From the NCBI GenBank assembly GCA_004431415.1, contig QPMI01000236.1, positions 1-64,000 on the forward strand: DNA of 64,000 bases, read 5' to 3'. This DNA comes from Cyanophora paradoxa CCMP329 (Eukaryota; Plantae; Glaucophyta). Each line of letters opens with the position of its first letter. Positions within the stretch are counted from its first letter, which is position 1. Positions 3,201 through 29,059 of this stretch are shown here, one piece after another. Under the pieces are notes generated by a model. That model was not told the origin of the DNA. It made no database searches and saw nothing but the letters and a program-made list of their open reading frames with translations. Made by a program: the position numbers and the translations under genes.

Positions 3201-3268
3201 CACATGCTTGGTGCTGCTTGCATTATCATCTTGAATGGTTTCTAGATTGGGTGGTAATTGAAGCTCAT
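1..3268 (-). CDS. Putative virion fibre / receptor-binding protein locus (frameshifted, possibly more than one gene; runs off window start)
   Basis: Chain of same-strand ORF fragments (2922-3320, 2759-2944, 2404-2646, 1510-1743, 943-1437, 642-1010, 87-461). Motifs: KDLGIRTRQWRNIH, LGNYVTKPEL, HxHxWxEIxGKP repeats, LamG-like end GISELIVFNRALTTSEKNAVRYYIQQKYG, and HTHTKAQITDFA repeats. Likely ATG at 3268. Confidence 0.65.
1830..2010 (-). repeat. 54-bp coding repeat (KYPPEDHxHDWxEIxGKP)
   Basis: Minus-strand translation: KYPPEDHNHDWDEILGKPQKYPPEDHRHDWGEIDGIPTEFPPSKHEHIWDEINDQP. Confidence 0.8.
2040..2330 (-). repeat. Acidic coding repeat (EEYLPDGxDPQEYEYxQ, about 22 aa)
   Basis: Four recurrences of ccatctggta at about 66-bp spacing; Glu/Asp/Tyr/Pro-rich translation. 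Confidence 0.75.
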
Positions 3269-3310
3269 GGCTTTTACTATATGGATTTATAAAATTCTGA
3301 TAAGTAAAAG

Positions 3311-4859
3311 ATGCTCTCAAGGTCGTTTTAAGTCTTTCTGGCGGGGGTGCAAGGGCATTATCATAACCAGGCTGCTAAAAGAAATCGAAAATCGAACTGG
3401 CAGAAGAGTAATCGATCTTGTGGATCTTGTAAGTGGAACTTCCACTGGTGGGATCATTGCAATAGGTTTGAATATCAGGCATCCTGATAAACCAGGTGAA
3501 CCTAAACTGACAGCAAACGATTTACACAATATTTACCTAACTCAACTGCCCTTGATTTTCGCAAATCCTCGAAATATCATCGAAAATGCCCTTTTTAATA
3601 CAAAATATGATGTGGGACCTTGGAGACTGCAATTAATTCAGTTACTGGTGAATCACTAATACAGGATTCCCTAAAGGACATTGTGATTACATCCTTTGAT
3701 ACTCAGAATATGAAACCAATATTTATCACAAATGACAACAACTACAACTTTATGCCTTGTAAGATTGCTGCTAGGGCTACTTCTGCTGCTCCTACATATT
3801 TCTCTCCTGTAAGCATTGTTGATTTCAATCGGGGAGTATTTGTCTGTCTCATTGATGGTGCCATTTCGGGAAACAATAATCCCAGTGTGTGTGGTTACAG
3901 CCATGCAAAGAAGATTTACAGTGATGATGATGATATAATAGTAATAAGTATCTCTTGTGGTGAGGTGGACCCACATTTAGAGTCTGATTATGTGGGTTAT
4001 GCTTATGAGACTGTGAACAGCTGGGGAATTCTCTCATGGATTGCCTCAACAGATGGAAGCCCATTGATTAACATGCTCATGGCTGCAAGTGAGCTTTCTG
4101 CCCTTGATAAGATGGAGGAGTTGTTACCCTACAACTATGATCAAGATTATGGTAGATACTATAGGCTATCGGTCCCTCTTCCAAACCATATAGTTAGCTC
4201 CTTGATGACACTTCTAAAATCCCAGATATGCTTTCTTTCACAGAAACCTACATTGCAGCAAACAATGATATGATCAATAAGCTTTGCAGCCTACTAGTAG
4301 CAAACTATGAACTAAAGAACCCTTCAAAGGCTTACATTTCATCCACTCTCACTACATCACCACCTTTGGATGCTAATTGGTATCAGCTTGCAGATGATGC
4401 CTTCACTGCCTCATCCTCTGTGACAGGTAAAGAGCCTTTCATGGCTAGACCTTCAGCATTTGGCTGGGAAGCTGGAGCCTATGCTCCTGAGCAGATATGG
4501 GAAACCCCACTGAATACCTTCAAGTTGCTTTCCCATACACTTTTGAACTCTCCTCTGTGATTGCCTATGGCTCAGGGGACACCAATGCTTTTATTAAGAC
4601 TTTCAATGTGGCAACATCCACTGATGGGATCAACTGGTCTTTTATTCGATCAGATGGCAAAACAAAATATATGTCTGTGAGAACATTAACAATGCTCACA
4701 ACTCTGGTGATGTGGCTCTATTGAGTGGGTTCCCTCTCAGCATCAAGGATGCTTTTTACATAGGTTTTTCTCTCAGAATTAAATATATTCGCATTTATCC
4801 CTTGTGTATGTGAATGCTCCACAATGAGAGTTGACTTTACAGGTGCCTTTATTCGATAA
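3311..4859 (+). CDS. Patatin-like phospholipase fused to C-terminal F5/8 type C (discoidin) domain (frameshifted)
   Basis: VLSLSGGGAR oxyanion loop, GTSTG nucleophile, ATSAAPTYF and LIDGA catalytic Asp. These are followed by EYLQVAF...IAYG...FNVATSTDGINW...KYIRIYP...MRVDF, typical of discoidin domains. Joins ORFs 3258-3659, 3620-4273, 4228-4560 and 4497-4724. Confidence 0.88.
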
Positions 4860-5779
4860 ACTCCAACTGAAAAGAATTATCGATTCCATTCATATCAATC
4901 AGTTCACCAAAGTAATCTTTAAACTCCACAGTGAGTTCCCTTATCACCAGGTTTCTGTCATTTATCTGAATGAATTCTGCATGTTCACCACTATGGTAAA
5001 CATAGCCACCTATATCCTTACTCAATTGCAATCTAAGGATTGCCCCTGGTTATGTGGTTGCGATTTCGGAATTATATTGTGTCTGCTGGCAAAAGGGGCA
5101 AGCTCTTTAATATGCATGTACAGATACTGCTCAGCATTCATATCAGACATCTTATTACTGGTGAAATAATACTGCAAGGGCTTTGAGGAGAGTCTGGGTC
5201 CTGAAAAGGTGGTTCCCCATGCTGGGTGATCAGGTGTAATAGGTTTGCCATCATACTTTAACAGGTTCTCAGGTCGATAGGGTGATCCACCAACAGGAGG
5301 AGTGCTATAATACCCATTGGTGTATTCAGTAGAACTCACACCCAAAAGCTTCCCTATTCTCTGGTTGCTTGCAATAAAACGAAACTCATGGTTGCTGTAA
5401 AACTCCACTTTATAGGTAGTTGGGTTATAGAATATCTTGAACTCAAAAGCTACTGTTTTGCCTGCAATGGTTTGGAAGCTTGAATAGTTCAGCCCATAAT
5501 TATAAGGGTGTGTTACCCCAAAATGACCCTGATTGATGTAGCCACTGGGAAGGGATACACTTGTTGTGTGATCACTTGGTTATATGAACCATCTTGGTAA
5601 TTAAACTGAACTGTTAGATGATCAGTTCCCACACTGTTATAGATGCTGTTTGGAATCTCTGCATATAGAACCCTGCATTCCCTTGGTCTCTCTACTGGAG
5701 TTGTGAGGGTGACCCTGTAAGAGTTTTCATTTTGTCCTTGGCTTCTATCCCTGCTATCAATATTAACGAGCCGGTTCAT
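4849..5779 (-). CDS. Minor capsid protein (penton) 1 (frameshifted)
   Basis: N-terminal VNIDSRDR...YRVTL...LYAEIPNSIYN and C-terminal YLYMHIKEL...ELTVEFKDYFGELIDMNGIDNSFQLEF, characteristic of PLV/NCLDV single-jelly-roll pentons. Confidence 0.8.
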
Positions 5780-5808
5780 TTTAATATATAAATATAGATA
5801 AAAGAAGA

Positions 5809-6813
5809 ATGCCTGTGGATTACATCGAGGTTAGCTCATTTAATACAATCTCTGGTGATGGTCCCACATCAAGCTTTGTGGCTAGACTCCCAGTAGTTAT
5901 GAGAATGTGAGGGCTGTGAGACTGGTCTCAGCCGAATTTTATAACAGTATCCCTATGGTGAGTGGTGAAACAAAGCAGGAGATGTGACAGTTGACAATGC
6001 ATTTAGCATTTATTATTCTGAACAAACTCCTGGAGCTGGAAGCTCAGGAATTCCAACAGTTCGCCCAGCTGCTGACTATGAACAATGGAAACAATTCATT
6101 ATAAGTCGAAACACCCCATCCAAAGCCACCAGCAACTGGTGAATGTAATTAACTCTAAATTCGAAGGCAGAAATCCCCAACCATCCATTCGCTGCAAATG
6201 GGATGAATCACTGAAACGAATTATATTCCACTCAGCAGTACCATTTTACTTGGCTTTCTCAGTAGCTGTGAACCCAAGCCAACAAACAATCCAAAAGCTG
6301 TTGAGTTCAGCTAGACTGCTGGGTCTTGATCCTGGAAGATATGGTAACTCCCAATCCAATCACAGGTCTATGATGCTCTCACTGATGGAATCTTTACTGG
6401 TGGTCGCGTGAATGGCATTATATCTTCTTTTGAGCCTGAGAAGACCAGGGACAGTGTTTTGTTTGTGAGAGTAAAGGAGCTGGTGATCTGGTGCAATGTG
6501 GGGATGGTCTTCTGACTGGTTACTTTCACAAAATAGTGGTCCCTGATAAAGACTATGGTGAGCATGTTGTTTACAATTCAACAGAAGCTCACCCACTTTA
6601 CAAATACTATAATAAAAAGGTTGGATTATCCACTTTCTCGGTTGATATTGTAAATGCTATTAATGAACCAATTGATTTTGAGGGTCAACCTGTTCATCTT
6701 ACCTTTGAAATTCGCTATGGTGATGAGCCAGCTGGGACCCAGTTTATGAATACTTCAAGATGCGAATGTCACAGCTTCACCCTTCCTATCCAGTTATTAC
6801 AAACTTCGCATAA
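5809..6813 (+). CDS. Minor capsid protein (penton) 2 (frameshifted; end approximate)
   Basis: MPVDYIEVSS...SFVARLP..YENVRAVRLVSAEFYNS and C-terminal LFVRVKEL...FSVDIVNAINEPIDFEGQPVHLTFEI, paralogous in pattern to penton 1. Lies directly upstream of the MCP. Confidence 0.72.
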
Positions 6814-6866
6814 ATTAAGGATCATTGGTAGATTTTTTATGTTGCAGTATAATAAAAGAGAATATA

Positions 6867-8236
6867 ATGGATATCACTTCCACTCTTCAAAGACTTTCGC
6901 TGAAAGAAGCCCTAACAACCCCAGAAGAGGCGAAAGCCTTTTTCCTGGATAACTCCCTTATGCTTGGTCTCGAATCCAAATCTAAGCCAGTTCTAGTTGT
7001 TGTGAATCCCAGCAATACTTTTGAGAATAATGTTGGAAATCGCATTTCCTTCAAGCTACCTCGCTACAATTTCTGTGGAAAACTCGAACTTGCTTTCGAC
7101 CTTCCAGCCATCACGTTTGCTGGTGATACTGACCTAGTTCGCAATGGATACACTCGCCCAGTTGGTGCTTTAGTTCAGCGACTTGAAATTACCTATGGAT
7201 CTTACACCTACCATATTCCATCTGATTTCCTTGCTCATTTCCCCCTGGTCTATTATTCGGAGGATCAACTAGCTAAAAAGAAGCGATCAATGGGCATGGT
7301 TCATGGCATCCCTGCTCATGGAACCAACCGCCTTGGTGGCTCATTCTTTGTTGAAATCCCTGTGCCTTGGCTAAATCACTACCTTCCCCTTGGTGCTTTA
7401 TCTGGTGAAATGGTTGTTACTGTTTGGTTTAAGGATGCTGGAAAGGGTTATGTTGAAACTTCCTATGGTGGTCGCTCTCTCCCTGTTGTTGGTGGGACAG
7501 TTGCTGATAAGACAGAAGATGATGGTCTTGGTGATACTGCTAATGCCACACTTGCCCATGTTGGTCAAAATATCACAACTTTCAGTCTTGGTGCAACAAC
7601 TCCTGTTATTTCTATTACTTCTCCTCGCCTTTACATGCATGCTATTAATGTTTCTGATGAGCTTTTCGCTACTGTCATTGAAAAGGTTAAGACAACTGGC
7701 ATGGCTATTCCCTCCCTTGATATTGGATTTGTAGATGCTAGTGCTTTCCCTGCCAAGGGCAATGCCCAACCCAATCGAATTAACCTCTCTCAAATCTCAG
7801 GTCTTGTATATGCTCTGCTTGTTTCAGTTCGTGATCATGAAACTGTTGACAAATCCAATGGCTCCACAGTGTTCTTAAGACCTATGCCAACTCCAAAGAC
7901 ATAACATTTACAACTGAAATAAATGGTCAGCGACTTTTTGCCACTGAGCCAATTTCCCTACTCAAAGGTGCTGAGCTAATTGCTGATGCCTTCAAATGCT
8001 CTAACATGGATAAGGTTGCTGATCGCTATGTCCTCTCAGGACTCCCATTCTGTCTTGATGGAGAAAAGGCAATTCGAAATATTGCCCAGTCTGGTTATGT
8101 TGATTTAACAAATTCCTCTTCTTCCTTCCTCACCCTCTACATGCCCTCAGATAAGGTAATCGATGTTAATGTTCGCGCTCTCATGCATAGCTTTATTATT
8201 GTCGACAAAGATGGTTTACGCAGAATTAATTTATAG
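6867..8236 (+). CDS. Major capsid protein, double jelly-roll (frameshift near 7890-7920)
   Basis: About 455 aa, beta-rich. Motifs RISFKLPR..FCGKLELAFDLPAI, ALVQRLEITYG, FFVEIPVPW..YLPLGAL...VTVWF and SGYVDL. Positioned between penton and packaging ATPase. Joins ORFs 6825-7904 and 8006-8236. Confidence 0.82.
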
Positions 8237-8301
8237 ATTGTTACGATTTTCAGTCTCCCTGCATTATTTTTATATGTCTTTATTAAGAAAGATATACAAC
8301 A

Positions 8302-9084
8302 ATGACTGATTTGGATGAATTTGTGGCTGGTGAAATGATAGAACCACCATTTCGTGTATTGGCAATAGGAAAATCAGCAACTGGTAAATCAGAAGCTGTA
8401 AAGTATTGGTTAAAGCAATTACATGATGCCAAAAAGATTGATGTTGTATTAGTTGTGAGTGGAACCAGCTTCAATCATTTCTGGGATAAAGTGGCAACAC
8501 TGCAACTGGGAAAATGGGATGCCCCTTACATTGCTAAATTGCTAGATGAGAGGCAAGAGAAAATAGAGAAAGGTGAACCTGTTAACCAATTGTGTGTGGT
8601 TTTAGATGATTTAATCGATAATGAGATAGTCGATCTCACAAGGGATAAAATAATCGGATCTCTGTATTCCAGAGGTCGCCATTCGAAAATATCCATTATC
8701 TGCATCACACAAAAGCTAAGAAAAGTCTCTTCGACTATTCGAGTAAATTCGGATTATGCAATGTTTCTAAGTGCTGCAAATCGCAAAGAACTGGAAGCCA
8801 TAGAGGAAGAATACAATATAATGCGAAATAAAGAGGATTTCTACAAGATGTTTGAAGAGTATGTTCACTCCTATCAGTATATCATTTGGTCCTCTGCAAA
8901 CTACTCAGTTAAATACTATGTAGATAAAGCTGAGCTTGTGAAAGATTTCCCATTTCCTCGCTTCCACAGGAAGCCAAAAAAGAAAGAAGATGAACTGAAA
9001 CCACCAGAGAAAGAGGAAGCCCCCAAAGAAGTGAAAAGCCAAGTCCATAGCAATAAATTGATGCGATATAAACGCGGTTTATAA
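8302..9084 (+). CDS. A32-like (FtsK/HerA superfamily) DNA packaging ATPase
   Basis: Walker A GKSATGKS, Walker B VVLDD, SRGRHSKISIICITQ motif, and IRVNSDY. Confidence 0.93.
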   Translation: MTDLDEFVAGEMIEPPFRVLAIGKSATGKSEAVKYWLKQLHDAKKIDVVLVVSGTSFNHFWDKVATLQLGKWDAPYIAKLLDERQEKIEKGEPVNQLCVVLDDLIDNEIVDLTRDKIIGSLYSRGRHSKISIICITQKLRKVSSTIRVNSDYAMFLSAANRKELEAIEEEYNIMRNKEDFYKMFEEYVHSYQYIIWSSANYSVKYYVDKAELVKDFPFPRFHRKPKKKEDELKPPEKEEAPKEVKSQVHSNKLMRYKRGL

Positions 9085-9112
9085 AATTATCTCTCATTCT
9101 AATAAAGATACA

Positions 9113-9847
9113 ATGCCTCCCAAACGAAAGATAGGGATCCCAGCTGGGGCTGTTGGCTATTCAGGTGGTGGAAACAATGGATCCATTAACACAGACCCAC
9201 TGAAATTCAATGGTATGAATGAAGTGAAGCCCTCTCAACAACAAGAAGACCCCCTCAATGCTGCCTATGAGGAATCATTTGATGACAAAGCCCCACAGGC
9301 TTCAACCAGTGACCAACTCAACATTTCACCTGAAGCCTCAAAGATGAAGGCTGTTGCTGAGGGAGCCAGGCGAATTATTGGTGCTGCTGATGATAAAGGT
9401 TTAGGCTTGCAAGATCTATCACTGGCTCGCAAAGGTGAGGGTCTCAGTAAAGAATCAGACAAGGTAATCCAGTCTATGGCTGGTGAAGTCACATATAAGA
9501 CTGCTCCCACTCAAAATATTCATCGAATTCCCAAGGCTCAATGGGATGAGATGACTGCTAAACTCAAAGATCTGGAAGCCAAATCAAGTGCCTTGGAGCA
9601 GTATGTTACTGAGAAGAAAGAGAGAGCCAAGCTAAAGGAGATGCTTCGAAAGGAAGTTTATAAAATGGGCATTACTGGTGTCCCAGATAAACAGTTTATT
9701 GCTAAGAAAGAGAACCAAATCGATGAGCAGGCAGTAGATGAAATGAAAACAAAGACCCAGAAGGGAACCATTGAACCTGGTGCCACTAAAGCTGAAGTAG
9801 AAAAGGGAGTAGCTCCCACAGTATATAAAAGACGAGTTTGGCTTTAA
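9113..9847 (+). CDS. Hypothetical viral protein (charged, coiled-coil; possible core protein)
   Basis: Intact 244-aa ORF, tightly packed, with the shared upstream TAATAAAG motif. Confidence 0.7.
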   Translation: MPPKRKIGIPAGAVGYSGGGNNGSINTDPLKFNGMNEVKPSQQQEDPLNAAYEESFDDKAPQASTSDQLNISPEASKMKAVAEGARRIIGAADDKGLGLQDLSLARKGEGLSKESDKVIQSMAGEVTYKTAPTQNIHRIPKAQWDEMTAKLKDLEAKSSALEQYVTEKKERAKLKEMLRKEVYKMGITGVPDKQFIAKKENQIDEQAVDEMKTKTQKGTIEPGATKAEVEKGVAPTVYKRRVWL

Positions 9848-9869
9848 TTATCTCTGTTTTATTAGAGAC

Positions 9870-10142
9870 ATGGATATAATACGAAAGTTTTTCGAGATGT
9901 TCAGTCTGCATGTGGTGAGCAATTGCCACAGTGGATGCTGTGAGACAAGAGTGGAGTTTGAGATGTCAGATACTGAGGATAATGCCTCAGAAGCAAGAGA
10001 GAGAAGGAGGTCTACGATTTCTGTGGAGTCAATGCCAGCAGACCCCACAGAGTATACATATGAGCAACAGGAGTATCCAAGGAGAAGTTCTCTGCCAGCA
10101 GAAAACGTTTTCTCTGGGAATATAAATGGAGGACACTATTAG
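9870..10142 (+). CDS. Small hypothetical viral protein with CxxxCC motif
   Basis: 90-aa ORF containing SNCHSGCCE after an amphipathic N-terminus; upstream TATTAGAG. Confidence 0.6.
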   Translation: MDIIRKFFEMFSLHVVSNCHSGCCETRVEFEMSDTEDNASEARERRRSTISVESMPADPTEYTYEQQEYPRRSSLPAENVFSGNINGGHY

Positions 10143-10371
10143 TTTAATCGAGTTTACCAGTGATGAACCTGTTACTGAGGGTTCTATTAGACACATTCTA
10201 GCAATGCAGAAACGATATAGAGAGGACCCAGCATATAGAGAGTATAAAAAGCAGCAAGCCCTGGCATCCTATTATCGCAGAAAAGCCCAAAAAGAGGAGC
10301 AGAGACCCAGAGGTAGACCAATTAAATATTATTTGCCTACTGAAAGTAGCAATGGACCCCCAGGTCTATAA
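10126..10371 (+). CDS. Small basic AT-hook DNA-binding protein
   Basis: RYREDPAYREYKKQQALASYYRRK helix followed by RPRGRP AT-hook. Confidence 0.7.
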   Translation: MEDTISLIEFTSDEPVTEGSIRHILAMQKRYREDPAYREYKKQQALASYYRRKAQKEEQRPRGRPIKYYLPTESSNGPPGL

Positions 10372-10523
10372 GATAATTGAGAAAAAGCGGTCTCAGTATG
10401 CCACTGAGGCAGCTATAAAAGTTTACAGACAGGAACTGGTGTTCGCAACAAAAAATGACTTAAGGAAAAAGTAGATAGATTGTATTGAGGAAAAATTATT
10501 TTCGTATCTACTATTAAAGAGAA

Positions 10524-10849
10524 ATGCCGAATATCCGCAAGATACTCACAGATGATGAAAAAGCAGAGAAGCTGAGACTGAAAAGGGAGCAAGATGCCCA
10601 AAGAAAACGCGAAGCCTATCATAAAAAGAAGCAGGAACGATTATCCAAGGAGCCGCTACAGTTCACACACCAGAAGAACTCAAAAAGATTGCCCTCAGAC
10701 ACCAGAGGAAATACAGGGAAAATGAAGAATATCGCGAGCAAAAAAAGGCAAAAGCGCTGGAATATTACCACAAGAAGAAAGATGAACAGCCCAAGAAACC
10801 CAAAGAGCATAAACCGGTTGGAAGACCTCGGAAATATATCGAAGAATAA
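10524..10849 (+). CDS. Small basic AT-hook-like DNA-binding protein (frameshift near 10645)
   Basis: After one frame correction it reads RKYRENEEYREQKKAKALEYYHKKK...VGRPRKYIEE*, paralogous to 10126-10371. Confidence 0.65.
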
Positions 10850-11066
10850 ATTCTCGATCGAAACAAATTTTGTAGAAATCGATTTGATCGGAGGCAAAAA
10901 AATGACAGCTTTCTTCCCTCTTTTTTAAAACTGTACCTATATATCGAGACAGTATCCCGACCCAAAACTACTTAAGGACTTGGCAAATAATAGGATATAT
11001 ATAAAAGACAATTCCTCCTTCCGAAATTATTTTCTTCGTTAAAGGTAGAAGTCCCCAAAATCGAAA

Positions 11067-13659
11067 ATGAACAAAATCGAGAAATTCGCCACCCCTGTTG
11101 AAAATGCTACATTCCTTAGTACTCTCATTGGTGATCGCAACAAGGTCACCCATGTATTTGATTCTGCCGAAGATGCCCTTGAAGCCATTGATAATAGCAA
11201 GGTTAAGACCTGGGCTGAATGCATTCAACCTGAGCAAGTGACCAGAGTTTACCTGGACCTGGATAAATTCGCTGATTTGAAGGAGAACATTGCTGATAAC
11301 TATGCTGAGGCGGAAACTGTTGTAAGAGAGATGAGAGATAAGCTATGGAAGCGATCTGGTACCACTTCTATTAACGATATTGCTGTTGCAGTTCGCCATA
11401 GAAGGGTTTATTTGATTAAGGAGGATGTCACCAAGTTCAAGATTTCAGCCCACTTTATTATTAAATCGCTTGCATGCAAACATGAAGATATCCCAAGCTT
11501 TTCAAAGCGATGGGATTGGTGAAAAATGAGGATTATGACAGTGGAGTTTACAGCTCCACACAGAACCTAATCTGCCTCAATTGCTGCAAAGGTGAGACTC
11601 TGGATGCTCAAAATAAGTCGAAAAAAGATGTTGATAAAAACGTTTGCTTTAAGAAATTCGTTGACTGTGACAAAGTGTTAATGCGAAATGAGGACTTCTT
11701 TGTATCTTACTTCTCAGCTACTACTAAACTTGTGGATGAATCAAATATTTCTGCATTTGCAAATTATACTCCTGAGCCAAAACCAGTTAAAAAGGAGCCA
11801 AAAAGTGATAAAGTGAAGACTGAGAAGGTAGAAGCTGAAAAAGACACTGAACCCGAAAATCCTGTTACTTTCGAACTGCTACAAAGTGTTATAATGGGTC
11901 TCAATGCTGAAAGAGCCAGCGAGTATAAGACTTGGATTGATGTTGGACTGGTCATCATCAATGTTGGGGAAGACAACAAATTTACCCCTAAAATGCAGGC
12001 TGAACTCTTCCACCAATTCTCAGAACAGAGTGACAAGTATGATTATGATGAATGCCAGGAAAAGTTTACACAGCTTTGCAGAAGCAAGAAGAAGGCTGAG
12101 CCTGGCAAAGTGTTGACCTTCAAATCCTTGGTTTATTGGTTGAGCAAAGATAACAATGAGCTTTTCAAGGAACTCTTCCCCAAAAAGTATGCATTCCTAC
12201 CAGAGGACACAGATGAAATCGATTACAAGACTGCAAGTATCCCTCCTTTGGCTGAACATTACAATGTGCATAAGAGGTATTTCAATGCTCGCATGCATCA
12301 TGTTGAAAATGTTGGTTGTGTGATGCTCTGGGATGAACAACTACTTTGCTGGATGCCCAAAGACATTGGAAAACTGTCTACAAAGCATTTCCCCACTTGA
12401 TGCATAAGGTGATTGTGAATGAGGGGACAGATAATGAGAAAGAGAAATGGGAGCAATCATTTAGGAAATGGATTGTGGATCCAACAGCCACAAGATCAAC
12501 TTACATGGATTTCCTCCCACCTCCTGCTACTCTCAGTGCAAAATGCAAGTCTGTATTTAATCTCTATCCAGGAATGAAGGTCGACCATCAGCAATTCGAA
12601 AATGCTCCAGAGGATGTAACTGCTGAGATGATTAAGCCTTTCCTTGATCACTTGTTCTTAATGTCTGGTGAGGATCAAAATACCTATGAATATCTGTTGA
12701 AATGGTTTGCCCACATGCTGCAAAAGCCTGGGGAACTCAATGGAGTATCCTTAATCTTCATTGGTGAACAGGGAACTGGTAAGAATGTGTTGGTTGATAC
12801 TTTCCAAAAGAAGATACTTGGAGATGCCCTGAGTTATGCAACTGGTAAGCCAAAAGAGGATCTGTTTGGTCGATTTGCCCACAATAGAGAGGATAAGATC
12901 TTGATTGTTGTGAATGAAGCCTCAGGCAAGGACACATTCGAAAATAATGATATGCTTAAAGATCTCATTACTTCTGATAAGATTGTTATTGAACACAAAG
13001 GGATAGATTCATACACAAAAAGCAACTTTGCCAGGATTATATTCACCAGCAATAACAACATTCCAGTTAAAATTGAAGCTGGAGATAGGCGATTTGTGGT
13101 TGTTGAAGTTAGTAAGAAATTCGCAAAGGATAGGTCATACTTCCTTCCACTTGTAAAATGGCTTAATGATCACTGCAATATTCGAAACATTGCCCACTAT
13201 TTGAGAACCAAAGTTGAATGTGAGGATGTGAACTGGATTGCTGATAGACCCCTTACAAATAAATACTATTTAGCCCAGCAGGTGTGCGCTCCAATCATCC
13301 TTATGTTCACTAAGTGGCTTGTGGATCGAGGCTTAATTTCCGAGAATAAATGCAAGTCTGGTAGCCTTGTGGAAACCTGGAAATGGTTCCAGGAGTTCAT
13401 TACCAGCAATAAATATAAAAACGATTATAATAGTCGCAGATATTATACAGAAATGCGAAGTGTTACATATATCCAAGTGAAAACTACAAATGGTAAACAA
13501 TACTATCATTTCCTATTCCCACAAGTATTTGAGGAATTCAGAAAGATGAAGCTTGTAGATGATGAGACCATTGAGGAAGAAGCTAATCCAAGGATGAAAC
13601 AAGAACTACCTGCTGCTGATCCTGATGCATCAGATTATGACTCTGATGTTGAAGTTTAG
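11067..13659 (+). CDS. AEP primase - PriCT-2 - SF3 (D5/DUF5906-like) helicase fusion (two frameshifts, near 11500 and 12370)
   Basis: AEP motifs RVYLDLD, KISAHF and DSGVYS. PriCT-2-like segment ASEYKTWIDVGL...FHQFSEQSDKYD. Helicase Walker A GEQGTGKN, Walker B VNEA, IIFTSNN and DRRF. Confidence 0.9.
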
Positions 13660-13668
13660 GTTTACTCA

Positions 13669-13851
13669 AAAGTGGACTCACAGTTGACTCAAATTTATCA
13701 TAAAAGACCCAAACAGTCTTTTATTTATGGTTTATTTATCGATTAGGTTGACTAAGTGGGGGGAGTTGACTCATTTTTTCACAGATTCTAAAAGAGGACT
13801 CTGCCCTAAAAAGAAATAAAAAGTGCCTCAACTCCACCCACTAAGTCAACC
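13669..13851. promoter_or_regulatory. Iteron/inverted-repeat module 1 (candidate replication origin)
   Basis: aaagtggactcacagttgactca, then a 24-bp inverted repeat ggttgactaagtggggggagttga (13746) / tcaactccacccactaagtcaacc (13828), immediately after the helicase stop codon. Confidence 0.6.
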
Positions 13852-13918
13852 AAAAAATGATTTAAGAGATAGAAAAATATATTTATATGTAACTAGTAAG
13901 AAATGGCTGGAACAGATC

Positions 13919-15766
13919 ATGCTAAAGAAAGAGTCCAAAGCTAGAGAACTAATCGATTTCCTGTTCACCAATATTCCAATGAATGAACTCACAGATGAGC
14001 AAAAGGCTATTTACAGGGCTACTAAACACTGTTACCTTTGCAGTGAGAGGTTCACTAAGGAAAACTTCAAATGCAGAGATCATGATCACCACACAGGTAA
14101 TTACATTGCACCTGCATGCAGAAACTGCAATCTCCATAGGAGAATCTCAAAGCAAACCAAAGTTGCAGTTGTTGTTGACCAAATGGATGACTGTGGGACA
14201 TTCATTTTCAGAAAAATAGCAGGCATGGGTGATAAAAAGCGAATCGAAATCCTTTCGAAAAACTTTGATCAATACCTTTCATTGCAATGGGGTCTTTACA
14301 AGTTCATTGATGCAAGTAATTTTATGGAATTTGGGGCTGCTGATGTAGATGAGTTAATGGACAAATTCCAAGCCTTCAGAAGGCTTTCACACACAGTATA
14401 TGGATTGGACCCAGTTCATTATGTATCTGCACCTGGGTTATCTTGGGATGCTATGCTTAGGACCACCAAGGCAAAAATAGAGCTTATAAGTGATGTAGAG
14501 CAATACGAATTTGTTGAGAGGGGAATCAGGGGTGGCTTTGCAACAATGCCTTGTAGGTATGCTGAGGCTGATGGTGAGAACTCCCATATAATGCTGTTTG
14601 ATGCTAACAACTTGTATGGCTACTGTTTGAGTCAGCCAATCCCAGTTGGTGATTTTAGATGGGAGACCGAATTCAACCCACAAGATAACAGATCCAGTTT
14701 CCTGGAAGTTGATCTGGATTACCCAATTAGGCTATATCTAGACCACAGTGATTTCCCCCTAATTATTAACAAGAAAATAATAGATTATGCCGAATTATCA
14801 CAATATCAAAAGAGCCTATTAGATCTCTCAGGAGAAGAGCTTGATAAGACCCCTAAGCTAACTGCAACCTTTGGTTCTGTGACCAACTATGTGATTTCTG
14901 AGCCTCTTCTACAGTATCTGTTGGACAAAGGGGTGAAACTAAAGAAGGTTCACAGGGTCCTATCATTTACTGTGGCTCCTGTAATGAAACCCTACATTGA
15001 GCTGAATACTGAGATGAGAAGGAAAGCAGTGAATAAATTCGAGGCTGATTTCTATAAACTCATGAATAACTCAATCTATGGGAAATGCATTGAATCTTGC
15101 AGAGGTAGATCTGTGGTTAAGATTGCAAACAGTGAGAAACTGTTTATGAAATATGCAGCCTCCCCATTGGTGAAATCAACAAGTCCCATAAACGAAAAAG
15201 CAGTTGCCTTTGAGTTTTACACAAAGCATGTGAAGCTAGATAAGCCAGTTGCTATTGGGGCTTATGTTCTGGATGCAGCCAAACTGCATAACTACAAGTT
15301 CTTCTATGATACTGTAAGGTCCCAATGGACAAAAGCAAAGTTACTATTCCATGATACTGACTCCTTTTGTCTATATATCGAATCTAAGACCCTACAAAAA
15401 GATATAGAGAATATATCCTTTAATCTGGACTTAGGAGGACCTAACAGAATGACCCCAGGTAAATACAAAAATGAAATGCCAGGTTCTGCTATATTGGAGT
15501 ATGTGGGTCTCAGAGCCAAAGTTTACAGTTTCAGAACTGCTGAGATTGAGAGAAGTAAGCTATCTGGGACTTCCACTGAGGAACTCCAATTTAATGATTT
15601 TAAGCAGTGTTTATTTGCAGGTATCAGCAAGACTGTGACTGCAAAGCAGAAGAGAAGGGCAGATCACACAATAATAGATACTGTGAGTAGAAGGGTTGCC
15701 CTAAACTGCTTTGATGCAAAGAGATACATCTTACCAGATGGTATTAATTCTGTTCCTTTTAATTAA
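13919..15766 (+). CDS. Polinton-type family B DNA polymerase with EndoVII-like Zn motif and degenerate exonuclease domain
   Basis: CYLC...RDHDHHTGNYIAPACRNCN; YGLDPVHYVSAPGLSWDAML; IRGG; motif A FDANNLYG, motif B KLMNNSIYGK, motif C HDTDS; KVY. The true start may be ATG 13903 with a frameshift; the frame is open from 13823. Confidence 0.92.
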   Translation: MLKKESKARELIDFLFTNIPMNELTDEQKAIYRATKHCYLCSERFTKENFKCRDHDHHTGNYIAPACRNCNLHRRISKQTKVAVVVDQMDDCGTFIFRKIAGMGDKKRIEILSKNFDQYLSLQWGLYKFIDASNFMEFGAADVDELMDKFQAFRRLSHTVYGLDPVHYVSAPGLSWDAMLRTTKAKIELISDVEQYEFVERGIRGGFATMPCRYAEADGENSHIMLFDANNLYGYCLSQPIPVGDFRWETEFNPQDNRSSFLEVDLDYPIRLYLDHSDFPLIINKKIIDYAELSQYQKSLLDLSGEELDKTPKLTATFGSVTNYVISEPLLQYLLDKGVKLKKVHRVLSFTVAPVMKPYIELNTEMRRKAVNKFEADFYKLMNNSIYGKCIESCRGRSVVKIANSEKLFMKYAASPLVKSTSPINEKAVAFEFYTKHVKLDKPVAIGAYVLDAAKLHNYKFFYDTVRSQWTKAKLLFHDTDSFCLYIESKTLQKDIENISFNLDLGGPNRMTPGKYKNEMPGSAILEYVGLRAKVYSFRTAEIERSKLSGTSTEELQFNDFKQCLFAGISKTVTAKQKRRADHTIIDTVSRRVALNCFDAKRYILPDGINSVPFN

Positions 15767-15885
15767 GAGATGCCAGCAACTGGAAGAATAGTTAGAAGAA
15801 CCACTGAGCAACTGCAAGGTAACCTACTGCCCATCACAATTCCAAAGGAGGAAAAGGGGAATCTCGAATTGTAAAAAAGTCAGAG

Positions 15886-17154
15886 ATGAAAGAGCTTGTC
15901 CCAGTAGAGATCCCAGTTGCTATTGCAGTGAAAGAAACCAGCAAGATTGCCAAGAGATTCTATGATGTGAGAACTGGTTACAAAGGGCTTCAAGCTATGA
16001 GGGCTGAGTTACCTGATGAATCCTATAAGCAGTTGCAAGAGTTCTATAAAAAACAAGAGGTAGTTCAGATCAATGCACCAGCTATATCTAGGAAGAGAGA
16101 TCCCATGGTTCCAATTAGGCAGCCCCTTGATACCTATGTGATTGATTTGCTCTTTTTCCCAGCTTATAAGAAACAAAACAATGGCTATGATACCTTTATG
16201 ACTGCAATGGAATCTACACTGAGAACTGGGTATATCATACCTATAAGGGATAAATCAGCTCTCACTACATTAGCTGCATTTAAACAGCTTGAAATGAGAG
16301 TGGCAAGACCAATAGTAAAAGTTCAATCAGATGCTGGGAGTGAATTCCAAAATCGAATATTCCAGGAGTATTTATCTAGTAAATTCATAGAACACCAAGT
16401 GAGTGGAACTGCTGACCATAGAAGCCAAGGTCGAATTGAAGCCTTTAACAAGCAGATTAAGAGACTGATCACAAACTATTGCATAGCTAATAACACAGCT
16501 AGATTCTTTGATGTGTTAGGTGATATTGAGTATAATTACAATAATACAGTTCACTCAGCTACTAAGATGAAGCCAGGCGAAACTACAGAGGAGCATTATA
16601 GGTATATAGTGGGATTAGAAGATGAAAGATTCAAGAAATCAATAGCTTACCTTGATACCATGCAGCCTGGCATGTTTGTTAGAGTGAAAGTTGAGAAGAA
16701 CCCCTTTGCTAAACAGGGTAACAATTGGTCTAGGATGGTTTACACTGTTGATAGTAGGGAAGGCTTTAAGTTTAAGCTAAGGAGTCCCACTGGAGAGATC
16801 ATAGATAACAGGTTTGCATTCCATGAGCTGTTGCCTGTGAATGCAGTTGAATATCTAGAAACCCCTACAGTGGATGCCTTAGAGCAAGCCAAAGAGGAAG
16901 CTAGGGTTGATGCTGCTATAAGGAGAGAGGGCATAGAAGCTGCTAATGAAGTCCCAGATAAGCCTTTGATAGAGGCTAGAAAGGACAAGGCTGGGAAAGT
17001 TAGCAGGGAACTCAAAAAGCTCACCATAGCAGGCACACAGAAACTTTCAGAAGTGAATAGCCAGAGGTGGTATAATGACTTTCAGACTACTAAGGAGTCA
17101 TATACAGCCCCTAAACCTCAAAGAACACTAAGAGAAAGGACCAAAACTAGCTAG
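15886..17154 (+). CDS. Retroviral-like (rve, DDE) integrase of Polinton type
   Basis: YVIDLLF (D), QSDAGSEF (D), QGRIEAFNKQIK (E), YNNTVHSATKMKP and a C-terminal GMFVRV...FAK...NWS..VYTV. May start at ATG 15770 with a frameshift. Confidence 0.93.
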   Translation: MKELVPVEIPVAIAVKETSKIAKRFYDVRTGYKGLQAMRAELPDESYKQLQEFYKKQEVVQINAPAISRKRDPMVPIRQPLDTYVIDLLFFPAYKKQNNGYDTFMTAMESTLRTGYIIPIRDKSALTTLAAFKQLEMRVARPIVKVQSDAGSEFQNRIFQEYLSSKFIEHQVSGTADHRSQGRIEAFNKQIKRLITNYCIANNTARFFDVLGDIEYNYNNTVHSATKMKPGETTEEHYRYIVGLEDERFKKSIAYLDTMQPGMFVRVKVEKNPFAKQGNNWSRMVYTVDSREGFKFKLRSPTGEIIDNRFAFHELLPVNAVEYLETPTVDALEQAKEEARVDAAIRREGIEAANEVPDKPLIEARKDKAGKVSRELKKLTIAGTQKLSEVNSQRWYNDFQTTKESYTAPKPQRTLRERTKTS

Positions 17155-17522
17155 TTTCATAGCCGAAAACTCGTTTTTTCCAAATATATGTATGTGTGAT
17201 ATACATATATGCATATGATATACACATCAACGTGTAGATCTTCTCAAGCGCTTCACAACGCTATGCAGAACGCTGCAAGTTGACTATCTGGTGATGAGAT
17301 ACAAGCGTTTGAAGATGCCGATTATCGATTTTTCGAGATTTCGGAATGATGCATCATAATGATGTAATAATGATGTATCATAAACATATAACATATATAT
17401 ATCGCCGTGATCGTCATGATCTCCCGAGTTCGATGGTGTGTCATATATATCATATACATTTGCATCGTCATTATGACATCATTTCGTAAAATTACACGTC
17501 CGTCATCGTCTTTTTCCGCAGC

Positions 17523-17731
17523 GAACAGATAAGTGAACAGTTAAGGAGACAACTATTGTAATAGTGGACTGCAACAACAATTGAAAACAAGATATGCGGG
17601 AAAGCTATTGAAAGACAATGAAGCAAATTGCGAACAATTAAGTGAACAGTTAAGTGGACACCTGTTGGGAGTAGGCAGTGTCTACTCGTTTATCGTGAAA
17701 CGGTGTCCACTTAACTGTTCATTTAACTGTT
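17523..17731. repeat. 12-bp iterons (AACAGTTAAGTG) forming a 30-bp inverted repeat
   Basis: aacaattaagtgaacagttaagtggacacc (17633-17662) versus ggtgtccacttaactgttcatttaactgtt (17702-17731); an extra direct copy at 17523. Confidence 0.8.
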
Positions 17732-17948
17732 GACGAAAACCCATGCATTATGACATCATATCATTAAACCACATACAAAACACTAAAATGCATGTATCTC
17801 TTCACCAACTCATCATGTGACAAAACCAAAAACAGATTCGGAATCCTCTTAACGAGGCCTGCCTGACGATGTAAGTATCATAGGCTCAATAATTCATATG
17901 TTTATAAGCATCTCCCCTTGATTCCCCCTATTATATAATATTTATATT

Positions 17949-18385
17949 AAAGTGGACTCAAGGTTGACTCATATTAATCGTAAAAGTAGTAATAGTATAT
18001 GGATTTTGTTACGAATTCAATGCAAGGGTTGACTAAGTGGGTTGAGTTGACTCAAATTTCACAGGAAATATTTGGGACCTAAAGTTTTCTAAAAAGGATT
18101 TCAAAAAATGTGTCAACTCCCCCCACTTAGTCAACCCTGACCATAAACAGTAAGGATTTGAGCTAACAAGTATCACAAAGTGAACATTTTGAGTCCACTT
18201 AGAAGATCCACTTTTGAAATCCAAGTTGATTTTGCTTGAAATTTCAAAGTTGATCTAAAAGTGAGTCCACCCTGATTGATTATGGTAACAAAGTTGACTA
18301 AGTTGACTAAGTTGAGTCATCTTAAGAAATTCAAAGAGACTAAGAGTTCAAAATGTTTATGAAAAGTGAGTCAACTTAGACCACT
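17949..18385. promoter_or_regulatory. Iteron/inverted-repeat module 2 (candidate replication origin)
   Basis: aaagtggactcaaggttgactca, an inverted repeat at 18025-18051 / 18112-18138, and further aagttgact / gagtccac copies to 18385. Same architecture as 13669-13851. Confidence 0.6.
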
Positions 18386-18397
18386 TATGATAACAAA

Positions 18398-20088
18398 GTC
18401 AGGCGAAGCCTCTTTCTCAAACCCAAAAACCGCCGACCGAAATTCCTTTTTTAACCTTTTTTTCCACTCGAGATCCCCCCTGCTAAATAATTTCCGTGTC
18501 ACACTCCCTCGAAGCAGAATTATTAATTCTGCCTCGACACGGACGCGATTGATGGACATTACACAGCTGCCCGAACCGCCACAGACCCCTCTAGATCCAT
18601 TTTTAGCGTCCTGGCTCCCCTAAGACGACCGCTCCCCCGTGGGCGTCGCGCGAAAATCGAATTTCCCTCTGGATCAATTCCGGTACTTAACCCCCGACAA
18701 ACACAGTCCGAGTCAGAAGGTGGGACCCGGTCCCGCCCGGTCCCGCGACGAAATCGCGCCAGGGACGCCCCAGAACGATACAGAATGACGCGCGAGGGCG
18801 AGCGCATCGCCGCAAGCTCGATTTCGGGCGCCCTCGATTCTCCAGTCCGAAGAATCGGCCGAACATTTGATCCGGCCGGTCCCGCCCGGTCCCGCGACGC
18901 GCGCAATCGATGCGTACCGGCGCGCATAGACATAGCAGGGCCTGCGCACCCCCGAAATCCGCTTTCGGAGCCAGAGCAGCGCAGGAAGGCTCCCGACGGC
19001 AAAAAATCGATCCTGCACAGTCCCGGGCAACTTTCCGCGCGCCGACGCCGCGGCGCATGCGCGGATCGATAGCATAAGCATTTGAGATGTAGGAGAAGCC
19101 TTTTGCACGGTCTCTAAATGCGCCGGGCCACGAGGACCCAGCCGACCCCGAAAATTCGATCCTCTACAGACCTGAAGACCTGTTCTTGCGCCCTCGCATC
19201 CTCGCGCATGCGCATCGCTACAATATTCATTTCACATTTTATTGAAGCCTTCCACAAGCTTTGAAGACGCGGAAGAGCACGAGAACCCAGCCGACGGCAA
19301 AAAATCGATTCTGAACAGACCCGGACATCTTTCCGTGCGCCAACGCCGCGGCGCATGCGCGGAACAATATGATAAGCATTTCAGATGTAGACAAAGCCTT
19401 CCGCACGCATTGCAGATGTGCCGGGCCGCGAGGACCCAGCCGACGCCGAAAATTCGATCCTGGACGGACCTGCACAGCTTTCCGCGCGCCCTCGCATCCT
19501 CACGCGTGCGCATCCCTACACTAGTAATTTGAGATCTTTCTTAAGCTTTTCGCGAACTCTAAAGATGCGCATGAATCCAGCCGACCCCGAAATAAAAGAT
19601 GAATCCAGCTGAATCGCGAACTCTAAAGATGCGCATAAAGATGCGACAGGGCGCGAGAATCCAGCCGACCCCGAAAATTCGATCCTGGCCAGGCCTGCAA
19701 AGCTTTCCGCGTGCCCTCGCCTCCGCAGCCCCGCACATCGATGCTATATGCATTCAAGATTCTGTTTAAGCGATTCGCAAGCTCTGTGCATGCGTCTGGC
19801 CTTGAGAATCTCGCCCCTCCCGGGCCTCCCTCTCAACAATATTATATAATTCATCTCCTCTCAACTTGCTCCGGCATCCCTTTATTTCCTCAGTACATTA
19901 ATATTCCTCTAGTTATATTCCTCTAGCCGGCCAGCGCTGGACAAGTACTGGCCGTCAGCCAGCCAGCTTCCGGATCCAGCCAGAAAGCTGTTCGCGATCG
20001 GCCAGGCCGCTGGCCAGTGCCCTATAGGCCTACTGTGACAGCCGCGAGGGCGTCCGCGAGGCTTCGCCGTACTTAGTGCTCCGCAGGA
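18398..20088 (+). mobile_element. Non-autonomous Helitron2/Helentron-like element, copy 1 (3' end clipped)
   Basis: 5' GGCGAAGCCTC near the start, subterminal GAGGCTTCGCC followed by a truncated hairpin, and internal ~150-bp tandem repeats. Confidence 0.6.
18990..19730 (+). repeat. ~150-bp internal tandem repeat with alternating a/b subunits
   Basis: gccgac...aaaattcgatcc recurs at about 18993, 19141, 19290 and 19439; mirrored in copies 2 and 3. Confidence 0.8.
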
Positions 20089-20246
20089 ACCCAAAAACCG
20101 CCGACCGAAATTCCTTTTTTAACCTTTTTTTCCACTCCAGATCCCCCCTGCTAAATAATTCCCGTGTCACACTCCCTCGAGGCAGAATTATTAATTCTGC
20201 CTCGACACGGACGCGATTGATAGACATTACACGGCTGCCCGAACCC

Positions 20247-21937
20247 CAAGATCTGTGCTCCTGCGGAGCACTAAGTACGGCGAAGCCTCGCGGACGCCCT
20301 CGCGGCTGTCACAGTAGGCCTAGCTATATATAGGGCACTGGGTGCCACTGGCCAGCGGGTGGCAGCGGCACGGCCGATCGCGAACAGCTGTCTGGCTGGC
20401 CAGCTGCAGCCCAACTAGTACTGGCCGGGCCCGGCCCAGTGCATGGGCCAGTCCAGCTAGCGCTGCATGGCCGGCCAGAGAGAAATATTAATGTACTGAG
20501 GAAATAAAGCGAATATATTATTAGGGAGTGGTTGGACTGGCTTTTAACTGGTGGAGCAGATTGAGAGGAGATTAATTATATAATTATATAATATTGTTCG
20601 GAGGGAGGCCGGGATCCCCGGAGGGGCAAGGTTCTCGCGGCCAGGCGCATGCACAGAGCTTGGGAATCGCTTAAACAGACCCTCGAATGCATATAGGCCG
20701 CCCGCAAAGACGTGCAGGCGTGGCGAGGATCGAATTTTTGCGTCGGCTGGGTTCTCGCGCCCTGTCGCGCCCACAGAGCTCGCGGAAAGCATTTAAAACA
20801 TCTCAAATGAATATACTAGCGATTCTCGTGCGTGAGGATGCGAGGGCGCGCGGAAAGATGTGCAGGTCCGTCAAGGATCGAATTTTGAGGGTCGGCTGGG
20901 TCCTCGCGGCCCGGCACATCTGTAAAGCGTGCGGAACGCTTCATCTACATCTCAGATGCTTATGCTATTGTTCCGCGCATGCGCCGCGGCGTGGGCGCGC
21001 GGAAAGATGTCCGGGTCCGTGCAGGATCGAATTTTTGCCGTCGACTGGGTTCTCGTGCTCTTTCGCGTCTTCGAAGCTTGTGGAAGGCTTTGATAAAATC
21101 CCAAATGAATATAGTAGCGATTCTCATGCGTGAGGATGCGACGGCGCGCGGAAAGACGTGCAGGTCCGTCCAGGATCGAATTTTCGGGTCGGCTGGGTCC
21201 TCGCGGCCCGGCGCATCTGTAAAGCGTGCGGAATGCTTCTTCTAGATCTTAAATGCTTATGCTATTCTTCCGCGCATGCGCCGCGGCGTGGGCGCGCGGA
21301 AAGATGTCCGGGGCCGTGCAGGATCGAATTTTTGGCGTCGGGTACCTTCCTGCGCTCTTCCGGCTCCGAAAAGCGGATTTCGGGGGTGCGCAGGCGCTGC
21401 TATGTCTATGCGCGCTAGTACGCATCGATTGCGCGCGTCGCGGGACCGGCCGGAACCGGCCGGATCAAATTTTCGGCCGACTCTTCGCACTGGAGCGTCG
21501 ACGGCGCGCGAAATCGAGCTTGCGGCGATGCGCTCGCCCTCGCGCGTCATTCTGTATCGTTCTGGGGCGTCCCTGGCGCGATTTCGTCGCGGGACCGGGC
21601 GGGACCGGGTCCCACCTTCTGACTCGGACTGCGTTTGTCGGAGGTTAAGTACCGGAATTGATCCAGAGGGAAATTCGATATTCGCGGGACGCCCACGGGG
21701 GAGCGGTCGTCTTAGGGAAGCCAGGACGCTAAAAATGGATCTAGAGAGGTCTGTGGGGGTTAGGGTAGCTGAGTCATTAGCGGCAATCGCGTCCGTGTCG
21801 AGGCAGAATTAATAATTCTGCCTCGAGGGAGTGCGACACGGAAATTATTTAGCAGGGGGGATCTCGAGTGGAAAAAAAGGTTAAAAAAGGAATTTATATC
21901 GGCGGTTTTTGGGTTTGAGAAAGAGGCTTCGCCTGAC
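20247..21937 (-). mobile_element. Helitron2-like element, copy 3 (full length, inverted)
   Basis: Reverse complement of copy 1, with both termini intact. Confidence 0.62.
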
Positions 21938-22766
21938 CCGGTCCCGCCCGGTCCCGCGACGAAATCGCGCCAGGGACGCCCCAGAACGATACAGAATGAC
22001 GCGCGAGGGCGAGCGCATCGCCGCAAACTCGATTTCGGGCGCCGTCGACGCTCCAGTGCGAAGAGTCGGCCGAAAATTTGATCCGGCCGGTTCCGGCCGG
22101 TCCCGCGACGCGCGCAATCCATGCGTACTGGCGCGCATAGACATAGCACGGCCTGCCCACCCCCGAAATCCACTTTTCGGAGGCCGAACAGTGCAGGAAG
22201 GCTCCCGGCAGCAAAAATTCGAACCTGCACGGTCCCGGGCACCTTTCCGCGCGCCCACGCCGCGGCGCATGCGCGGAACGATAGCATACGCATTTGAGAT
22301 GTAGAAGAAGCCTTCCGCACGCTTTACAGATGCGCGGGGCCGCGGGGACCCAGCCCACCCCGAAAATTCGATCCTCTACAGACCTGCACATCTTTCCGCG
22401 CGCCCTCGCATCCTCGCGCATGCGCATCGCTACAATATTCATTTGAGATTTTATCAAAGCCTTCGACAAGCTTCGAACACGCCGAAGACCACGAGAACCC
22501 AGCCGACGGCAAAAATTCGATCCTGCACGGACCTGGACATCTTTCTGCGCGCCCACGCCGCGGCACATGCGCGGGACAATAGCATATGCATGTGAGATGT
22601 AGACAAAGCCTTCCGCATGCTTTACAGATGCGCCGGGCCGCGAGAACCCAGCCAACCCCGAAAGTTCGATCTTGCACGGACCTGCACAGCTTTCCGCACG
22701 CCCTCGCATGCTCACGCATGGGCATCGCTACGGTACTCAGCTCCACCCTTTAATTATTTCCCGTAG

Positions 22767-22933
22767 CTCTTTGAAGAGAATGGGGCTCAATCTAGATCGA
22801 TCTGCTCCACCCTCTTTGAAGAGAATGGGGCTCAATCTAGATCGATCTGCTCCACCCTTTAGCGAAAGTTCGATAATTAAGAGCTCAAATGAATACTCTC
22901 ATGGGGCTCAATCTAGATCGATCTGCTCCACCC
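22767..22933 (+). repeat. 45-bp tandem repeat (about 2.7 copies)
   Basis: ctctttgaagagaatggggctcaatctagatcgatctgctccacc twice, plus a partial copy at 22901. Confidence 0.85.
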
Positions 22934-23410
22934 TTTAATTATTTCCTCGCTCAGTACATCATGGCATTAATATTCCTCTAGCCGACCAGCGCTAGCTGGA
23001 CTGGCCGTCAGCCAGCCAGCTTCTAGCCAGAAAGCTGTTCGCGATCGGCCAGGCCGCTGGCCAGTGCCCTATAGGCCTACTGTGACAGCCGCGAGGGCGT
23101 CCGCGAGGCTTCGCCGTACTTAGTGCTCCGCAGGAGCACGGATCTTGTTAAATATTTATTTGATTTAATCGGAAAAGAACATGATTTAATCGAATTTATT
23201 GATATAATTCCGATTAGATTCATTTAGGATTCAATTAAGATCAATCGAAGTTATTGATATAATTCCGATTAACTACAATTAAGATACAATATCGATTAAT
23301 CGAGTTTATCGATATAACATCGATTAAATTAATTGAAAATGCATTTACAAATATGAAAATTCATGTGAAAATTCAAATAAATTAATCGATTTTATTGATA
23401 TAACATCGAA

Positions 23411-28827: not shown

Positions 28828-29059
28828 CTTGCTGGGCGCCGCAGGTTGAAAGGGCCGACCGTGCTCGGCCCCGAGTCAGCGGCTGTGTTCTGTTTCCTTC
28901 TACCCCAGGAAGGCGGGGTACAGTCCCGAAAACACCTCTGCCGAAAACAGATCGGCCGCGCTCGGCTCGCACTCGCAGCAGCGGCATGAGCTTAGGACCG
29001 CAGTCGAGTTAGCCATCGGTCAGGCCTCGTAGCGAGGGCCTAGGGCCCAACCCAGAGCG

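Follow-up and report, generated by a model that had tools for sequence, protein, structure and literature searches.

The window, a 64,000-nucleotide stretch of DNA, carries at its left end a region with the hallmarks of Polintons and Polinton-like elements (Polisuviricotina), including an A32 ATPase, an RVE integrase and low-GC insertion, followed further right by host DNA of 66–79% GC (26–53 kb) (Table 1). Judged by sequence, this is an endogenous Polinton-like region. Many further copies of its element sequences are found in the species, and 14 of the 24 runs listed, which bear one species label throughout, hold half or more of the viral-region words. Two frames at 6825–8236 may be a major capsid protein gene, a putative call from position and motifs; the candidate found no library match and a PDB sequence search was empty.

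Several frames of the region are split (3258–4273, 6825–8236, 11067–13659 and around 15855). The breaks checked between 11 and 16 kb fall in short homopolymer runs, differ from short-read contigs and point to unpolished long-read errors. The viral region also holds two tandem arrays, one of 36 bp × 6 copies (1–218, inside a minus-strand ORF) and one of 65 bp × 3.4 copies (2048–2267). At its right edge, positions 18398–23150 consist of host-side, diverged 149-bp tandem repeats in nested inverted arrangement. Beyond them lie an ATG17-like gene (27230–28987, minus strand) and a HYDIN-like gene (~29800–45850, plus strand), with very long open frames and ~70% GC; together they likely point to a flagellated, single-celled and intron-poor eukaryote, the ATG17-like hits being uninformative on lineage.

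Table 1. Features of the viral part of the window and the evidence for each.
Feature	Position	Strand	Evidence
Low-GC (36–43%) endogenous Polinton-like region; left end beyond the window	1–18397		GC; followed by repeats, then GC-rich host DNA
Patatin-like phospholipase, two frames	3258–4273	+	Pfam PF01734 on both pieces
Putative major capsid protein, two frames	6825–8236	+	Position and motifs
A32-like packaging ATPase	8302–9084	+	Pfam Pox_A32, E = 6e-11
AEP (putative)-PriCT2-SF3 helicase replicase in three frames, broken at short homopolymer runs	11067–13659	+	PriCT-2 and SF3-helicase matches
Long hairpin/palindrome with repeated GTTGAC boxes, directly behind the helicase gene; possibly origin- or end-like	13746–13851		Fold z = -6.2; 0 of 200 shuffles
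13-codon out-of-frame upstream ORF, first ATG past the hairpin, overlapping the PolB ATG; likely what is left of a gene that other copies carry after the helicase	13903–13944	+	Translation; X11 contig
pPolB ORF	13919–15766	+	615 aa from ATG; 648 stop to stop
ATG and three codons of left-hand DNA, in frame with the polymerase, not pPolB-homologous	13919–13930	+	Loose ends; 0 of 6 residues match P0122
C-terminal portion of a group-2-type pPolB (HNH insert, dead exonuclease remnant, whole polymerase module)	13931–15766	+	Stretch in common with sister copies, whose contigs start matching at 13931
HNH/endonuclease VII-like zinc domain; four Cys, D-H-x-H and Asn positions kept	13994–14134	+	Pfam PF02945 (Endonuclease_7), E = 6e-5, slightly below the curated cut-off; columns conserved
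ExoII remnant without catalytic Asp	14168–14197	+	Alignment
In-frame collapse of the segment before ExoIII; ~90 residues gone, ExoIII Tyr lost	14303–14347	+	Alignment; spacer (151) as in P0122
Polymerase motifs A, B, C and KxY, all intact	14594–15526	+	Alignment
RVE (DDE) integrase directly behind the pPolB	15886–17154	+	Pfam rve, E = 2e-4; IS481-type, E = 4e-12
Second hairpin, homologous to the first, close to where the low-GC element ends on the right	18025–18138		Fold z = -6.9; 68% identity over 190 nt to 13669–13851

The polymerase ORF matched DNA_pol_B_2 (PF03175) above the cut-off (E = 2e-14). Its predicted structure (mean pLDDT 79.8), a step proposed in an earlier note made from the letters of this DNA, gave phi29 polymerase as the best fold in the PDB (E = 3e-16, TM 0.56) and MELD/adintovirus PolBs as the best among viral models (E = 8e-39); a PDB sequence search with the PolB found no match. 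The enzyme of Bacillus phage phi29, its best solved fold, is of similar size and has no fused terminal protein (TP), with 14% identity. Phi29 has an active exonuclease and encodes its TP in a separate gene. Hundreds of pPolB2-type proteins are 33–40% identical to the window's PolB, and integrase matches occurred in 26 of 117 loci, the best ones immediately behind pPolB2 genes. The assignment to the pPolB lineage in the earlier note is upheld, with the PolB of pPolB2 type, and protein-primed synthesis is predicted for the intact form of the family.

We aligned the ORF in 391 rows (the window, 388 search hits and two locus ORFs), which represent best hits and not a random sample. As the note had stated, motifs A (14594–14620), B (15056–15085), C (15350–15364) and KxY (15518–15526) are present, with their catalytic residues retained. 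The polymerase-module profile aligned over positions 1–494 of 498, inserts included, which we take to be of the TPR1/TPR2 type. The exonuclease is a remnant, again in agreement with the note: the ExoI profile went unmatched in all six frames (ExoI Asp in 313 of 391 rows, 74 gaps), ExoII lacks the catalytic Asp found in 365 rows (24 gaps), and the long segment from FxDS to ExoIII has shrunk in frame to ~10 residues against a median of 100. The ExoIII Tyr, present in 381 of 391 rows, is missing from the window, which still aligns an Asp in the ExoIII Asp column. Across its whole length and in six frames, the window matched none of the TP-region, vOTU, ExoI and ExoIII-segment profiles. The short protein without room for a TP region, put at about 620–650 residues in the note, has 615 residues (648 stop to stop).

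Within the exonuclease region, the zinc and catalytic positions of the HNH insert are retained in the window and in the relatives P0122, P0200 and P0256. One of its ligand columns has Cys in all four proteins; 295 of the 391 rows have His there and 66 have Cys.

A profile search covering 1.84 billion representatives returned a single outlier, P0122 (1083 aa, E = 2e-184), which is 48–50% identical to the ORF and aligns in one stretch with window residues 7–614. The spacer between the HNH motif and the RGG motif is 151 residues in both, 169 in P0200 and 162 in P0256, compared with 240–279 in 278 of the 294 proteins having both anchors (95 of 389 lacked anchors). A short segment was flagged in seven of 374 rows with both flanks, and four stayed after inspection (the window, P0122, P0200 and P0256). 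The three rejected were P0185 and P0279, whose raw sequences hold the full segment, and P0172, which resembles a gene-model join. In the spacer count, the short value of P0329 came from a wrong anchor. The ExoI Asp is missing from P0122, P0200 and P0256, and the exonuclease motifs are defective in all three.

Trees of the polymerase module grouped the four exonuclease-dead proteins with SH-aLRT support of 92 (60 rows) and 89 (30 rows, mixture model, quick search), both values unstarred, and paired the window with P0122 at 100 in both trees. P0200 and P0256 have an odd composition. A single origin of the group is suggested by these trees. Plain decay can be rejected as the cause of exonuclease loss because the loss recurs in frame in relatives, which supports reading the proofreading loss as an inherited, evolved state and not as decay of the window copy. 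The fidelity of the family enzymes is predicted to be low.

The same relatives appear to have kept protein priming. TP and vOTU domains and their residues were defined by Krupovic et al. (PMC11161782, in its accessible text), and we built TP-region and vOTU profiles from exonuclease-intact relatives alone; the TP label denotes position and a match to the relatives' profile, not a fold. P0122, P0200, P0256 and P0419, which clusters with P0256, matched the TP-region profile at 29–43 bits and the vOTU profile at 78–115 bits, and the vOTU Cys and His columns are retained in P0122, P0200 and P0256, the three aligned. P0122 has ~470 N-terminal residues with both matches despite the same exonuclease collapse. 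Exonuclease-dead relatives therefore look protein-primed, as far as profiles and alignment can tell. Protein searches returned no same-species sister protein, and the window's PolB, integrase and ATPase are absent from the protein collection searched. Locus scans for near relatives gave exonuclease-intact pPolB2 elements at 26–42% identity, or nothing.

The gene upstream is a replicase in which DxD and SxH motifs may mark an AEP domain; Pfam, PHROGs and NCBIfam contained no AEP profile match to it. Its frame breaks are likely assembly errors: they coincide with short homopolymer runs, and there the contigs of all three DNA runs depart from the window by a single base. Synonymous changes made up 23 of 26 variants in the primase-helicase and six of eight in the PolB, counted in a small, selected sample (40 of 322 places, 34 within the two genes). 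Both gene families look constrained on this basis; the variants say nothing about whether the two genes work as a pair. Among 121 fetched loci, 23 of them pPolB loci of at least 12 kb, we found no relatives of the SF3 helicase; the polymerases in those loci are exonuclease-intact where measurable.

Two homologous hairpins flank the PolB and integrase. The GTTGAC-box motif occurred ten times against 0.41 expected, with every hit in 13683–13773 or 17963–18375. Other contigs join the right-hand of the two hairpin regions (13669–13851 and 17949–18375) at 17905 from different upstream DNA, so that this right-hand region may represent an end or origin module common to several element families. Fifteen viral contigs sharing the hairpin motif had no further similarity and were taken as chance.

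The start of the polymerase gene was compared with contigs from four of the 24 listed runs (X2, X3, X11 and X15) over 10800–18200; no RNA run was named among those listed, X15 is guessed to be RNA and the other three are DNA runs. The evidence consists of 24 of 193 loose ends and 32 of 4330 pieces. Among the loose ends listed, contigs of three of the four runs depart from the window exactly at 13930|13931. At least three contigs of X2, which may be the window's own source sample, and at least two of X11 have loose ends before 13931. A 340-letter X15 contig fits 13931–14069 only, with 201 letters left over, and a diverged X3 contig departs at 13964 with 171 letters. In two of these runs, loose ends of 18 letters at 13931 continue the PolB frame without a stop. 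They encode six residues that fit the family columns, and four of the six are shared with P0122 in register; in the window itself, none of the six residues preceding the junction agrees with P0122, and a Lys occupies a hydrophobic column. On the left side, one X11 contig tracks the window to 13921 and then continues with different sequence, open for 29 letters in the frame of the 13903 ATG. These letters have a Gly-x-Ile-Tyr pattern that recalls, on our reading, GIY-YIG nucleases. Contig depth rises at ~13.9 kb in each of the three DNA runs; since genes cannot be ranked by this measure, we do not count it as evidence.

The missing N-terminus thus looks like a junction of two DNAs at 13930|13931, a cause separate from that of the exonuclease loss. 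We infer TP and vOTU in the same-species sister genes from relatives at most 48% identical, because same-species sister sequence spans only 18–30 loose letters. These data divide the remaining claims of the earlier note. It took the open frame as a sign of evolved reduction, which holds for the exonuclease, given the same collapse in relatives, and fails for the N-terminus, since the ATG at 13919 belongs to unrelated left-hand DNA and the open frame is uninformative there. It asked whether the deletion recurs in sister copies: the exonuclease collapse does so in P0122, and similarly in P0200 and P0256, but the relatives do not share the N-terminal loss. Of the full exonuclease and TP region that it named as evidence against itself, the TP half was found in P0122 and partly in sister copies, and no intact exonuclease was. 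Its central proposals, that the enzyme lost protein priming and relies on the adjacent AEP primase-helicase, run against the TP-region and vOTU matches of exonuclease-dead relatives, P0122 with the same collapse among them, and against same-species contigs that extend the polymerase in frame upstream of 13931.

We consider it likely that the locus arose when a deletion between copies in tandem or nested arrangement fused an AEP-helicase virus to a pPolB-integrase element, the latter from a lineage that bears a TP and has a dead exonuclease. Such a deletion would have left a cut polymerase with an accidental start codon. The ORF would be a 5'-truncated copy of a longer, protein-primed and proofreading-dead enzyme. 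In its intact form this enzyme would have the order TP, vOTU, dead exonuclease (with HNH) and polymerase, would be self-primed on its own terminal protein and would travel with an RVE integrase. An AEP-SF3 helicase Polinton-like virus and a pPolB-integrase element may have lain in tandem or nested, and deletion or illegitimate recombination could then have connected the beginning of a gene located after the helicase with an internal point of the pPolB. On this view the AEP primase-helicase would serve the left element as its own stand-alone replicase and would not be a partner. Under general scanning rules, the ATG at 13903 would capture most initiation. The window copy would probably make little polymerase because this stronger, out-of-frame ATG lies 16 nt upstream of the PolB ATG, and its product would be unable to prime. 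Counting against this explanation, the junction is in frame behind an ATG, and a helicase partner for the exonuclease-dead lineage is plausible (see below).

Alternatively, the junction may have given rise to a subfamily that is spreading and whose PolB, lacking TP and a working exonuclease, elongates primers from the AEP primase-helicase, with the hairpins as possible starting sites. The in-frame ATG, the open frame, the complete polymerase module and the related hairpins on either side are what this reading would expect, as is the mainly synonymous variation among sisters (23 of 26 and six of eight, among the 40 of 322 places), although that bias speaks for the family of each gene and not for their pairing. 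Mavirus, as presented in the accessible text of PMC11161782, combines an exonuclease-less pPolB with a separate SF3 helicase. We regard the proposal as unlikely given that contigs of three of four runs depart at the junction, in frame where letters are listed, that exonuclease-dead relatives keep TP and vOTU, that the first ATG is out of frame, and that AEP-SF3 proteins are stand-alone replicases in these viruses in the available portions of PMC11161782, 10.64898/2026.06.19.733378 and 10.64898/2026.10.13.758929. Slightly less credible still is its fuller form, a fixed and spreading innovation in which a TP-less, exonuclease-dead pPolB2 caught mid-switch from protein priming works on AEP primers at hairpin origins, with the intact, endonuclease VII-like HNH insert replacing proofreading.

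It is equally doubtful that a noisy long-read assembly wrongly merged two multi-copy elements at this point, the ORF being present in no genome. Several frame breaks at homopolymer runs have no counterpart in short-read contigs, no piece among the 32 of 4330 listed bridges the window's own junction, and endogenous viruses in many copies are known to cause false consensus sequences (PMC10120064, accessible part). However, no long homology between the two sides invites collapse, the break is clean, the remaining PolB frame is unbroken, and rare variants are lost from contigs, which means that a junction present in one copy could be missing there; contigs bridging 13930|13931 may exist. Very improbable is a short polymerase served in trans by a TP encoded elsewhere, in a different gene or copy, as in adenoviruses and one coral polinton, where the TP is split off: such splits exist, the entire polymerase module is kept, with inserts that contact TP in protein-primed enzymes, and the species has many other copies, but the described splits leave vOTU with the polymerase (both points on splits from the accessible text of PMC11161782), the break here lies inside the exonuclease domain past ExoI, and the window holds no TP gene, though the element extends past its left edge.

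The joining of two elements, our preferred reading, has close precedents. The two-replicase, tandem or nested polisuviruses of Barth et al. (10.64898/2026.10.13.758929) and the Halocafeteria preprint (10.64898/2026.07.28.741278), in the parts available, likewise combine AEP-SF3 with pPolB-DDE modules at a single locus; palindromic repeats surround one of the modules, and hairpins go with replicases other than pPolB. The former describes two-replicase genomes, tandem integration with internal deletion, repeats bracketing one module and strong pPolB-DDE pairing; the latter describes nested elements, palindromes associated with non-pPolB replicases, and pPolB accompanied by a D5 primase-helicase, which it regards as probably transient states. 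The available text of a preprint on the PLV framework (10.64898/2026.06.19.733378) calls switches of replication module common. Those parts of the first two accounts make no mention of a pPolB from an exonuclease-dead lineage cut in mid-gene, as in the window. Most likely, then, the locus is chimeric, part AEP-helicase Polinton-like virus and part pPolB-integrase module, an arrangement known from earlier descriptions, and the 'minimal, primase-dependent' reading rests on one rearranged copy. The locus is likely a snapshot of replicase-module exchange, and it cautions against assuming that a pPolB and a primase function together when they are neighbours in a single endogenous copy.

The solid novelty is a small group-2-type pPolB lineage that has lost its exonuclease motifs and kept TP, vOTU and the HNH insert. 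The pPolB2 of group-2 polintons and Polinton-like viruses, as described in the accessible text of Jeong et al. (bioRxiv 10.1101/2023.08.22.554363), shares the HNH insert inside the exonuclease region, the polymerase motifs and the RVE integrase that follows, but has three conserved exonuclease motifs; in the window ExoII is dead, the ExoIII segment is deleted, and TP, vOTU and ExoI are missing. Mavirus and other palm-retaining truncated pPolBs (PMC11161782 and PMC13215967, available parts) have lost the exonuclease and kept TP and vOTU, with the SF3 helicase in a separate gene and lower fidelity predicted; Krupovic et al. give mavirus pPolB as TP-vOTU-palm without exonuclease in that part of PMC11161782. 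In the window, by contrast, the HNH insert is complete and a large part of the exonuclease fold remains. It belongs to a separate lineage: mavirus ranks 38th among viral models at 11% identity, and the nearest relatives in protein searches are pPolB2-type at 33–50%; the trees were built without mavirus.

We met no description of an exonuclease-dead pPolB2 lineage in the literature searched, though proteins of this kind may be listed in the supplements of Jeong et al., Krupovic et al. and Barth et al. The lineage appears to add one more case to the losses of proofreading in mavirus and in the pPolB-SF1 fusions. A helicase partner for the lineage is plausible by analogy because Krupovic et al. 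2024 (PMC11161782, accessible text) report that exonuclease loss accompanies helicase gain, and the lineage offers a natural test of this proposed link.

Further variation was seen among the pPolB2 relatives. One ORF (L016, 4439–10003) encodes 1854 residues stop to stop, ~550 beyond its relatives, and possibly has a C-terminal fusion. Four loci (L118–L121) place pPolB2 relatives in bacterial MAG contigs, one of 106 kb, and are likely binning contamination. In run X15, a diverged relative under the same species label matches the HNH-ExoII stretch alone (window 14114–14196), and its hand-translated loose end lacks the ExoII Asp, which hints at a second exonuclease-dead subfamily.
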